A DNA stretch of 64,000 bases from Desulfurococcaceae archaeon (GTDB lineage Archaea > Thermoproteota > Thermoprotei_A > Sulfolobales > Desulfurococcaceae), in the NCBI GenBank assembly GCA_038888155.1, contig JAWAJB010000001.1, positions 192,001 through 256,000 on the forward strand, given 5' to 3'. Shown here in pieces: positions 50,943-51,417 of this stretch. The notes under the pieces were generated by a model. The model saw only the letters and a list, made by a program, of their open reading frames with translations, did no database searches and was not told the DNA's origin. Position numbers and translations under genes: made by a program. Positions within the stretch are counted from its first letter, which is position 1, and each line of letters starts with the position of its first letter.

Positions 50943-51055
50943 GAATTTCCACCTGAATACTCTACGTAAGGCACTTAATTTAAAAATAAATGAGTACGGG
51001 GGTTTAATACTCAAACGAGATCTTAGGAGTGGCGGGGCCCGCTATGAAGCGAGAG

Positions 51056-51098
51056 TAGCGGGGGGTGGATTTGAACCACCGACCTCGGGGTTATGAGC
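51056..51098 (-). tRNA. 3' half (positions 31-73) of interrupted/split initiator tRNA-Met(CAT)
   Basis: GCTCATAACCCCG-AGGTC-GGTGG-TTCAAAT-CCACC-CCCCGCT-A; anticodon CAT at 51093-51095; preceded by 22-nt leader AGCGGCAGCCCGGCCCCGCGAA. Confidence 0.95.
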
Positions 51099-51144
51099 TT
51101 CGCGGGGCCGGGCTGCCGCTCTATTATACTAGAGTGGTTTTCCG

Positions 51145-51160
51145 CTTATAAATTTTATCG
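51145..51160 (-). promoter_or_regulatory. BRE/TATA promoter for the tRNA-iMet 3' half
   Basis: CGATAAAA-TTTATAAG ending 24 nt upstream of the leader start (51120). Confidence 0.75.
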
Positions 51161-51272
51161 CTGGGGCAAGGAAATATGCCTGTTGCGTTAGTTGATGTAA
51201 ATGCTCCTGTGTGATTGCTGCAGCTGACAACATTAAATAATTGGAGAAAAGTGAAGCGCCTGTAGAAATGTG

Positions 51273-51278
51273 AAAAAA
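51273..51278 (-). terminator. Oligo-T terminator after the tRNA-iMet 5'-half trailer
   Basis: TTTTTT on the minus strand at the end of the complementary trailer, followed by pyrimidine-rich sequence. Confidence 0.6.
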
Positions 51279-51296
51279 GCGGCAGCCACGGCGCCT

Positions 51297-51327
51297 CCCG
51301 CGGGCTACCAGGCTGCCCTACCCCGCT
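51297..51327 (-). tRNA. 5' half (positions 1-30) of interrupted/split initiator tRNA-Met(CAT)
   Basis: AGCGGGG-TA-GGGC-AGCCTGGTA-GCCC-G-CGGG; A1:U72 and G29-G30-G31/C39-C40-C41 initiator hallmarks once joined; trailer AGGCGCCGTGGCTGCCGCT. Confidence 0.95.
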
Positions 51328-51363
51328 GTTAAACCCCGCCAATTCTACCTTTCTGTTTTATCC

Positions 51364-51371
51364 CTTAAAAA
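51364..51371 (-). promoter_or_regulatory. TATA box for the tRNA-iMet 5' half
   Basis: TTTTTAAG on the minus strand; implies a TSS near 51340 and a ~13-nt 5' leader. Confidence 0.6.
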
Positions 51372-51417
51372 CTTGAAGAGCTGGGCGAGCGAAGCCGATA
51401 TAGCTGCCAATTTACTC

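Follow-up and report, generated by a model that had tools for sequence, protein, structure and literature searches.

We found that the initiator tRNA gene, tRNA-iMet(CAU), of a hot-spring Desulfurococcaceae archaeon is interrupted at position 30/31 by 198 nt (51296-51099 on the minus strand of the window, the 64,000-nt stretch of contig analysed here), and that this insert holds both a pair of complementary arms and a BRE/TATA element of its own. Judging from the sequence, the locus is probably a co-linear split gene with adjacent halves, encoding the only initiator tRNA of the cell, in which the internal promoter would contribute materially to the product. The source genome is labelled G000 in comparisons with relatives, and all features given below by coordinates lie on the minus strand.

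The 5′ exon (51297 to 51327) comprises tRNA-iMet nucleotides 1-30 in 31 bases, with 17a, and was delimited from the sequence, from ARAGORN run with introns allowed and from identity to orthologues; the 3′ exon (51056 to 51098) comprises nucleotides 31-73 with the anticodon CAT and no encoded CCA, and was placed by sequence, ARAGORN and orthologues together with an Rfam tRNA match to this half alone that stays below threshold (21.7 bits). Joined, the exons (31 + 43 nt) give a complete cloverleaf that is identical to the uninterrupted 74-nt iMet gene of 10 congeners. Its A1:U72 pair and the three G-C pairs that close its anticodon stem are hallmarks of archaeal initiators. ARAGORN called no tRNA at this locus under default settings and a single tRNA-Met(cat) with a 198-nt intron when introns were allowed; the end that it gives implies 51055, and we place discriminator A73 at 51056. 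An assembly-wide search returned this as the sole iMet gene of G000, with one iMet 5′ exon. The halves share a strand, follow each other in 5′-to-3′ order and are separated by 198 nt; they do not occupy the separate loci by which split tRNA genes are recognized, and their co-linear spacing assigns them to the subclass with adjacent halves known from A. pernix. Outside the exons, a predicted 5′ leader GGCGGGGTTTAAC (51328 to 51340), supported by TATA spacing, covariation and cofolding, pairs through its first 7 nt with the 3′ trailer CCCCGCC (51031 to 51037; sequence, covariation and cofold). Covariation in relatives supports this outer leader-trailer helix, which also appears when the predicted halves are folded together; no clean bulge-helix-bulge could be drawn in it by hand.

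The insert (51099 to 51296), whose limits follow from the sequence, ARAGORN and the congeners, reads 5′ to 3′ as an A bulge base, GGCGCCGTGGCTGCCGC, T6, a 112-nt spacer, CGATAAAA-TTTATAAG, 22 nt, and AGA-GCGGCAGCC-CGGC-CC-CGCG-AA. The trailer arm GGCGCCGTGGCTGCCGC (51279 to 51295) is defined by its duplex with the leader and by its alignment to the trailer of the L066 element of a relative, and the complementary leader arm GCGGCAGCC-CGGC-CC (51105 to 51119) by sequence and helix prediction; the latter is part of a predicted 24-nt leader of the 3′ half (51099 to 51122; AGA, the arm, CGCG and an AA bulge), bounded by the predicted start and the helix. Between the arms, 15 GC-rich bp can form, interrupted by two bulges of one base each, which is more than the 12 bp or so that marks split genes; with an A-U/G-U extension the helix reaches 23 bp at −36.4 kcal/mol. 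The same helix is found in the fold of the whole precursor (−90.2 kcal/mol), and the two predicted halves cofold at −95.2 kcal/mol as compared to −62.6 kcal/mol for the two apart. At the junction, a relaxed bulge-helix-bulge of the HBh′ type was drawn by hand, in which the leader's CGCG forms central helix H with exon C25-G28, the bulges are G29-G30-A and A-A-G31, and C-7 and C-8 of the intron are the partners of its G+2 and G+3. The minimum-energy fold prefers a neighbouring register with one bulge shifted; however, 40 of 41 relatives have an insert ending in CCGCGAA, and intron positions +3 and −8 covary (G-C in 34, A-T in 6 and G-T in 1 of 41 inserts), which supports the register drawn by hand. 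Two EndA paralogues are encoded in the genome (PF01974, 94.3 and 31.2 bits), to which subunit roles can be assigned by inference, and EndA of the two-subunit type handles relaxed splice motifs. The spacer (51161 to 51272) had no recognisable content by Rfam, tblastn or genome search: no Rfam family was found at the gathering threshold or at E values up to 10, one spurious match aside, no C/D boxes were seen by eye, and TGATGA and CTGA are absent. A reading of the insert as a repeat or MITE was rejected, as it has no second copy in the genome (best other matches 16 nt, E 0.64).

Promoters were scored with a 16-mer BRE/TATA matrix derived by expectation-maximisation from 44 tRNA genes of contigs C1-C4, using 70 nt of upstream sequence for each; having been trained on the G000 genome, the matrix was then applied to the inserts of other families. 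The 5′ half is preceded by CTTCAAGTTTTTAAGG (51363 to 51378; 11.91 bits), with a predicted start at about 51340. The internal element, CGATAAAATTTATAAG (51145 to 51160), begins 62 nt ahead of the 3′ splice site and scores 11.50 bits, above 30 of the genome's 44 tRNA promoters (the other 14 are higher), and sites of at least this score number 194 in 2.28 million positions. When the 150-nt interior was shuffled 20,000 times, an equal site arose anywhere in 0.8% of cases, and in 0.04% one lay no more than 4 nt from the right distance. From TATA spacing, transcription from the internal element is predicted to start at about 51122, which is the first leader base able to pair with the trailer (P about 0.0004). 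By these measures the internal BRE/TATA is more than a chance match, and we infer that it fires. The preliminary description of this DNA was accurate on the layout: T6 does close the paired trailer at 51278-51273, directly after GGCGCCGTGGCTGCCGC; the spacer of about 110 nt before the BRE/TATA at 51160-51145 measures 112 nt; the element is spaced as other promoters are, with its predicted transcription start on the first leader base; and the order of the halves is such that a read-through transcript could be spliced in cis.

The T6 (51273 to 51278), lying directly after the trailer arm, is a candidate transcription stop for the 5′ half, which we judged against counts of T-runs in the genome. 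Runs of T6 or longer occur at 0.32 per kb per strand. Among the genome's 43 tRNA genes, an internal run of T4 or longer is present in two, in the iMet insert and in the anticodon region of a tRNA-Lys gene, and the iMet insert is the only intron to contain one. At the same position after the trailer, relatives carry T6 (L066) and T5 (L079). A run of T5 or longer follows within 40 nt of 5 of 43 tRNA genes, as compared to 4.8% of random windows, and lies 13-60 nt from the 5′ splice site in 8 of 31 long or trans elements, as compared to 11.7% of control windows, which gives the terminator weak backing from relatives. On these counts a T-run acting as the stop signal at this locus is plausible, and it does not appear to be a general rule for the tRNA genes of this organism. 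T6 is a modest terminator for archaeal RNA polymerase; the stop may be partial, in which case cis splicing may be the main route.

One could thus envision two transcripts from this locus. Transcription from the upstream promoter would start near 51340 and end mostly in the T6, so that the 5′ half, made up of leader, nucleotides 1-30 and trailer, would measure about 66 nt, and the internal promoter would start a second RNA near 51122, with a 24-nt leader, nucleotides 31-73 and the 3′ trailer. The two RNAs would anneal through the 15-bp GC-rich helix (23 bp extended), the acceptor stem and the outer leader-trailer helix, the junction folding into the HBh′ motif; a splicing endonuclease of the heterotetramer type would then cut at G30|A and A|G31, and a ligase would join the exons. 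Polymerases reading past the T6 would produce a precursor that the same enzymes could splice in cis. Of 12 sequencing runs found, 3 were of RNA, all available as contig-level data. In the one RNA run with part of the region, metatranscriptome contigs cover the exons only and none lies over 51108-51277, a hole in coverage that proves nothing; the exon cover derives from many community members, and the joints seen are those of relatives with no intron or a short one.

The state of the iMet gene in relatives was established by a scan of 41 related genomes, from which the iMet loci were fetched. In genus g1 (17 genomes including G000), 10 have an uninterrupted iMet gene, G004, G015 and G016 have an intron at 30/31 alone (27, 42 and 31 nt, respectively), and G002 and G012 have three inserts each; G008 was left unassigned in this tally. 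The locus is syntenic across the genus, with flanking genes at 65-73% nucleotide identity. A wider scan, taking one genome per species and searching for the iMet 5′ exon and then an insert, yielded 50 loci, all in MAGs of the Desulfurococcales/Sulfolobales type. Inserts at 30/31 were 26-45 nt long in 32 of these loci, 183 and 252 nt in two, and 1270-1575 nt in seven, the last with an antisense ORF of 245-389 aa; the remaining nine had no co-linear 3′ exon in reach, four being cut by a contig end, four having the 3′ half on the opposite strand and one being unassigned.

Long inserts (≥150 nt) occur at three sites, 30/31, 37-39 and the T-loop, and most share the placement of the internal promoter with G000. 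In 19 of the 22 long inserts other than that of G000 (20 of 23 with it), a motif of at least 10 bits begins 61-75 nt ahead of the 3′ splice site, a count that overstates independence as three near-identical element pairs are among them; control windows in the same inserts reached 10 bits in 18 of 2348 cases, and three of the 23 long inserts have no good promoter at the usual place. This placement does not change with the direction of the ORF, antisense at 30/31 and sense at 37-39 and the T-loop, from which it follows that the promoter serves the downstream tRNA piece rather than the ORF; the comparison with relatives thus speaks for a functional promoter. Pairing strength also separates the classes: short introns of 26-45 nt form helices of 5-15 bp (−7 to −23 kcal/mol; 5 bp and −8.2 kcal/mol for the 27-nt intron of G004), and long and trans elements form helices of 17-30 bp (−34 to −49 kcal/mol), the class to which G000 belongs. 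The family core GGGCTACCG(T/C)CCC is recognizable in the G000 arms, where changes from it are compensated. Between TATA and leader, G000 is similar to L080, an insert with a 373-aa ORF (P 0.01), a likeness that is not robust given that the other six of seven comparisons gave P 0.07-0.75, and the interior of the G000 spacer had no match in other inserts. A metagenome search with a 21-nt word spanning exon and trailer was uninformative, its 10 matches all being unrelated DNA (55-72% G+C) and none lying in iMet.

In four MAGs, a single contig carries the iMet 5′ exon on one strand and the 3′ junction on the other, convergent in G041, G044 and G043 (0.3-1.1 kb apart) and divergent in G042 (2.5 kb). 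Each of these assemblies has a single iMet 5′ exon, and leaders are complementary to trailers. Because halves on opposite strands with a single 5′ exon cannot be spliced in cis, these genes must trans-splice. Two of them have promoters of 14.2 and 14.3 bits 64 nt before the splice site, and the other two have motifs of 8.8 and 8.2 bits. The arms of the G000 insert have a homologue in this group: the trailer arm and T-run align to L066 of G042 (shuffle P 0.00015), and the leader arm aligns to L100, the partner of L066 (shuffle P 0.00015). The trailer arm and T-run also align to L079 (P 0.0008), which like L066 comes from a Fervidicoccaceae-type relative. L101, considered as the 3′ half of L079, was a spurious match, and the 3′ half of L079 was not found.

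The ORFs of the full-length 30/31 inserts form a small family (five related proteins, one pre-annotated as PF14528). Among six such ORFs, five matched LAGLIDADG_3 or Hom_end in Pfam, all below the curated cut-off, and a sequence-profile search of the PDB with their alignment gave only noise. An AlphaFold model built from 11 sequences had a pLDDT of 90.1, and its top Foldseek matches were PI-PfuI, bI3 maturase, I-Tsp061I, I-DmoI, I-AniI and I-SceI, with probabilities of 0.98-1.0 and TM-scores that are modest because the query has extra domains. Going by the fold of this model, the 30/31 ORFs of the full-length relatives are LAGLIDADG homing endonucleases. Of the ORFs at the other sites, two of three tested from the T-loop passed the LAGLIDADG_3 cut-off, and neither of two from 37-39 had a Pfam match. 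The G000 insert has no ORF and no significant endonuclease remnant (the best tblastn match, E 0.015, was to a sense-strand frame of L055 that does not encode the endonuclease), and tblastn found no remnant in the L049 insert. In contrast, the 252-nt insert L096 of G027 retains a remnant of the endonuclease C-terminus (tblastn 7e-9), which shows that mid-size forms lacking an ORF arise by deletion. Elsewhere, the L063 and L073 genes with their inserts are 97.5% identical, as compared to 90.9% in the upstream flank, a difference that is only suggestive of element mobility.

The G000 insert could instead be an unusually long cis intron, transcribed within a single precursor of about 300 nt, its TATA and T-run being chance or the inert leftovers of a decayed mobile insert. 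The halves are co-linear, the whole precursor folds with the same helix, ARAGORN models the 198 nt as an intron, T6 is modest as an archaeal terminator, and T-runs after the trailer are not conserved in the family (8 of 31), all of which such an intron would accommodate. However, it would not explain why, at three sites and with any ORF orientation, 19 of the 22 other long inserts have a promoter at the same set distance, or why the same module drives halves on opposite strands. The one earlier "intron" of more than 100 nt lacking a C/D-box RNA proved to be two transcripts, and 198 nt exceeds the 11-129 nt given for archaeal tRNA introns in PMC3218864. We therefore regard a simple cis intron as unlikely.

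A different concern is that the insert is real and was mis-threaded by the metagenome assembler, the 198 nt coming from the iMet gene of a neighbour. The exons and leader are common to co-occurring relatives; in the best DNA run, summed depth is ∼1400-2700 over the exons and ∼8 over the flanks, unitigs break inside the exons and no contig lies over 51108-51277; and the bin measures 2.42 Mb with 6.4% contamination, as compared to 0.9-1.5 Mb in congeners. On the other hand, only one iMet 5′ exon is present in the assembly, the insert is one coherent unit in that its two arms are complementary to each other, and the hole in contig cover is no proof. We consider such an error very improbable, and the element itself would be unchanged by it. 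The split gene with its own internal promoter is thus the reading that we retain.

How the insert arose is a separate question. The preliminary description proposed that a terminator-promoter segment was inserted into the loop of a 30/31 intron, and a relative with such a short intron does exist: the 27-nt intron of G004 (L002/L091), AGGCGCCGT-TGAAACA-GGCCCCGCGAA, has the same 9 and 11 terminal bases as the G000 insert, in which arms and spacer take the place of the loop, and the locus is syntenic in the genus. However, these shared ends are the sole observation that speaks for insertion and would be equally expected if the G004 intron is a further deletion product, and the flanking genes of G004 are no closer to those of G000 (65-69% nucleotide identity) than are those of intron-less congeners (68-73%). 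The arms and the T-run have homologues in other families, full-length members of the family carry endonuclease genes and L096 retains a piece of one, and it is difficult to imagine how a simple insertion would deliver a segment with matching arms at both ends. Insertion into a short intron like that of the congener is accordingly one possible history among others, and a rather doubtful one, as the arms, the T-run and the promoter position recur in a family of iMet inserts that bear endonuclease genes when full-length. Alternatively, a mobile insert with an endonuclease gene may have decayed, first losing the ORF and ending as a short intron. Four observations favor such decay, to wit the remnant in L096, the arms and T-run held in common, the common placement of the promoter and the patchy distribution within the genus (10 of 17 uninterrupted); to decay we would give somewhat less than an even chance, and it is at least as likely as insertion. 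The G000 insert may thus be the ORF-less relic of a LAGLIDADG-bearing mobile element.

The design itself is already known. According to Chan, Cozen and Lowe (2011, PMC3218864), tRNA-Asp(GUC) of A. pernix has an "intron" of 121 nt that contains a 14-bp GC stem and, on the strand of the gene, a strong BRE/TATA, gave half-transcripts by northern blot and faint read-through by RT-PCR, and was termed a "true evolutionary intermediate". The preliminary reading of our locus as a snapshot of the transition from intron to split gene is supported in its anatomy, and the locus is not the first such case. The A. pernix gene comes from the same archaeal order and shares with ours co-linear halves on one strand with possible weak read-through, a BRE/TATA within the former "intron" with a start 20-25 nt before the 3′ splice site, and a GC-rich leader-trailer stem (14 bp there, 15 bp here) with a splice motif at the junction. 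It differs in that the tRNA is tRNA-Asp rather than a single-copy initiator, the junction is at 37/38 rather than 30/31, the spacer is 121 nt rather than 198 nt, no T6 like that at our trailer end is explicit, the motif is a canonical hBHBh′ rather than a relaxed HBh′, and the evidence there includes RNA, whereas ours is read from DNA. What is new here is the tRNA (iMet), the junction for a gene of the adjacent type and the explicit T-run.

Other disrupted genes resemble parts of this one. PMC3218864 also reports 30/31 splits of tRNA-Lys and convergent halves in T. aggregans. For Staphylothermus marinus/hellenicus and Nanoarchaeum equitans, a split tRNA-Lys(CUU) is there described with the 30/31 junction and a promoter for each half, in a different tRNA and with halves at least 4.5 kb apart or on different strands; the split tRNA-Asp of Thermosphaera aggregans, as given there, has adjacent halves that match the opposite-strand iMet of the four MAGs, unlike G000, where the halves share a strand. 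Archaeal rRNA bulge-helix-bulge introns that encode LAGLIDADG homing endonucleases (I-DmoI, I-Tsp061I) have the ORF fold predicted for the full-length iMet relatives, and splice motifs of one kind delimit both; however, their host is rRNA rather than tRNA, the 30/31 ORF is antisense to its host gene, the iMet insert has a promoter for the downstream host piece, and the G000 copy has no ORF. In Caldiarchaeum subterraneum, tRNA-Thr(GGU) is likewise presented by Sugahara et al. (2012, PMC3293823) as a late disruption by a mobile element with variation between close relatives, the unit being a recombinase-bearing transposable one rather than an endonuclease-bearing intron. A literature search covering sources other than subscription journals returned neither LAGLIDADG genes in archaeal tRNA introns nor a co-linear split iMet, and the passages available of PMC4090602 (a 2014 review of tRNA introns), PMC6125680 and PMC4496867 mention neither.

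It has long been debated whether split tRNA genes survive from a time of ancient half-tRNAs or arose late, through disruption of genes. A previous case of adjacent halves argued for late origin; the iMet locus is a second, in an essential, single-copy initiator tRNA. At this one orthologous site, relatives form a graded series, from no intron through introns of 27-45 nt, ORF-less spacers of 183-252 nt with a promoter, and inserts of 1.3-1.6 kb with an endonuclease gene and a promoter, to halves on opposite strands. This series makes both the route and its direction testable and points to homing-endonuclease inserts as a possible agent. We tentatively propose, as a scheme that may well be right but that we hold just short of evenly balanced, that iMet in Desulfurococcales-type archaea is a target of mobile LAGLIDADG inserts at 30/31, 37-39 and the T-loop; that these inserts bring with them a promoter for the downstream piece and long pairing arms, by which the invaded gene, essential and single-copy as it is, goes on functioning as a split one; and that loss of the ORF would leave two-promoter genes, inversion would leave obligate trans genes, and deletion would leave introns of 26-45 nt. 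If true, this would explain in concrete steps how split tRNA genes came about, and came about late, with every stage alive at one orthologous locus.

The initiator tRNA (iMet) gene, in the window as in relatives (loci L002-L097), is bracketed by a helix of 7-8 bp in which the 5' leader pairs with the 3' trailer. On the minus strand of the window the 5' leader arm, GGCGGGG (51340-51334), begins where transcription is predicted to start; its complement in the 3' trailer is CCCCGCC (51037-51031). The pairing covaries among the relatives (GGTGGGG/CCCCACC, GGGAGGC/GCCTCCC, GGGGGGCC/GGCCCCCC and GGGGCCG/CGGCCCC), is present also at uninterrupted iMet genes, and is missing from a few genomes. Outside the genus of the source genome (G000), the trailer arm is followed by ACCA or GCCA, an arrangement that resembles a second, outer acceptor end.

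Record 15 of the metatranscriptome run X6 is a 107-nt contig, placed on 51056-51106 and 51297-51327 of the window, that links both iMet exons, the link consisting of 23 other nucleotides and the conserved CCCGCGAA end. We take this contig to be the unspliced short-intron gene, or precursor, of a relative; its source may alternatively be DNA carried over into the RNA library.

When ARAGORN was run with introns allowed on G000 contigs outside the window, it called tRNA-Arg(gcg) with an "intron" of 1581 nt (C54:2942-4597), tRNA-Leu(tag) with one of 2223 nt (C114:947-3260) and tRNA-Ala(agc) with one of 723 nt (C4:66266-67083), calls that may be false or may be additional interrupted tRNA genes. 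The G000 bin comprises 134 contigs and 2.42 Mb (congeners, 0.9-1.5 Mb), with 6.4% contamination and with repeated tRNA-Ser(gct), Arg and Phe genes on small contigs, and some of its sequence may belong to other organisms or elements.

In related MAGs, the iMet gene is interrupted by as many as three inserts, at 30/31, 37-39 and the T-loop (L036, L041, L034, L040, L057, L068, L075, L048, L063, L077, L081 and L083). Many inserts in relatives' iMet genes are 0.7-1.6 kb long and contain LAGLIDADG-type ORFs, antisense at 30/31 and sense at 37-39 and in the T-loop, and each has a predicted promoter ~65 nt upstream of the next tRNA piece. At L053, L055 and L080 the antisense endonuclease ORF terminates within the trailer arm, in the opening 10-25 nt of their 30/31 inserts. 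The ORF boundaries fall on insert positions 10-22, so the coding sequence extends into the arm that pairs in the RNA.

In four MAGs the iMet halves lie on opposite strands of a single contig, three convergently and one divergently (L102 in G041, L099 in G044, L103 in G043, and L066 with L100 in G042). The initiator tRNA genes of all four MAGs are of the obligate trans-spliced type. Past the 30/31 junction, the 3' half of L099 reads GCTCATAA and then enters a further long insert that has a GC-rich trailer of its own, so the iMet gene of G044 may be in three pieces.
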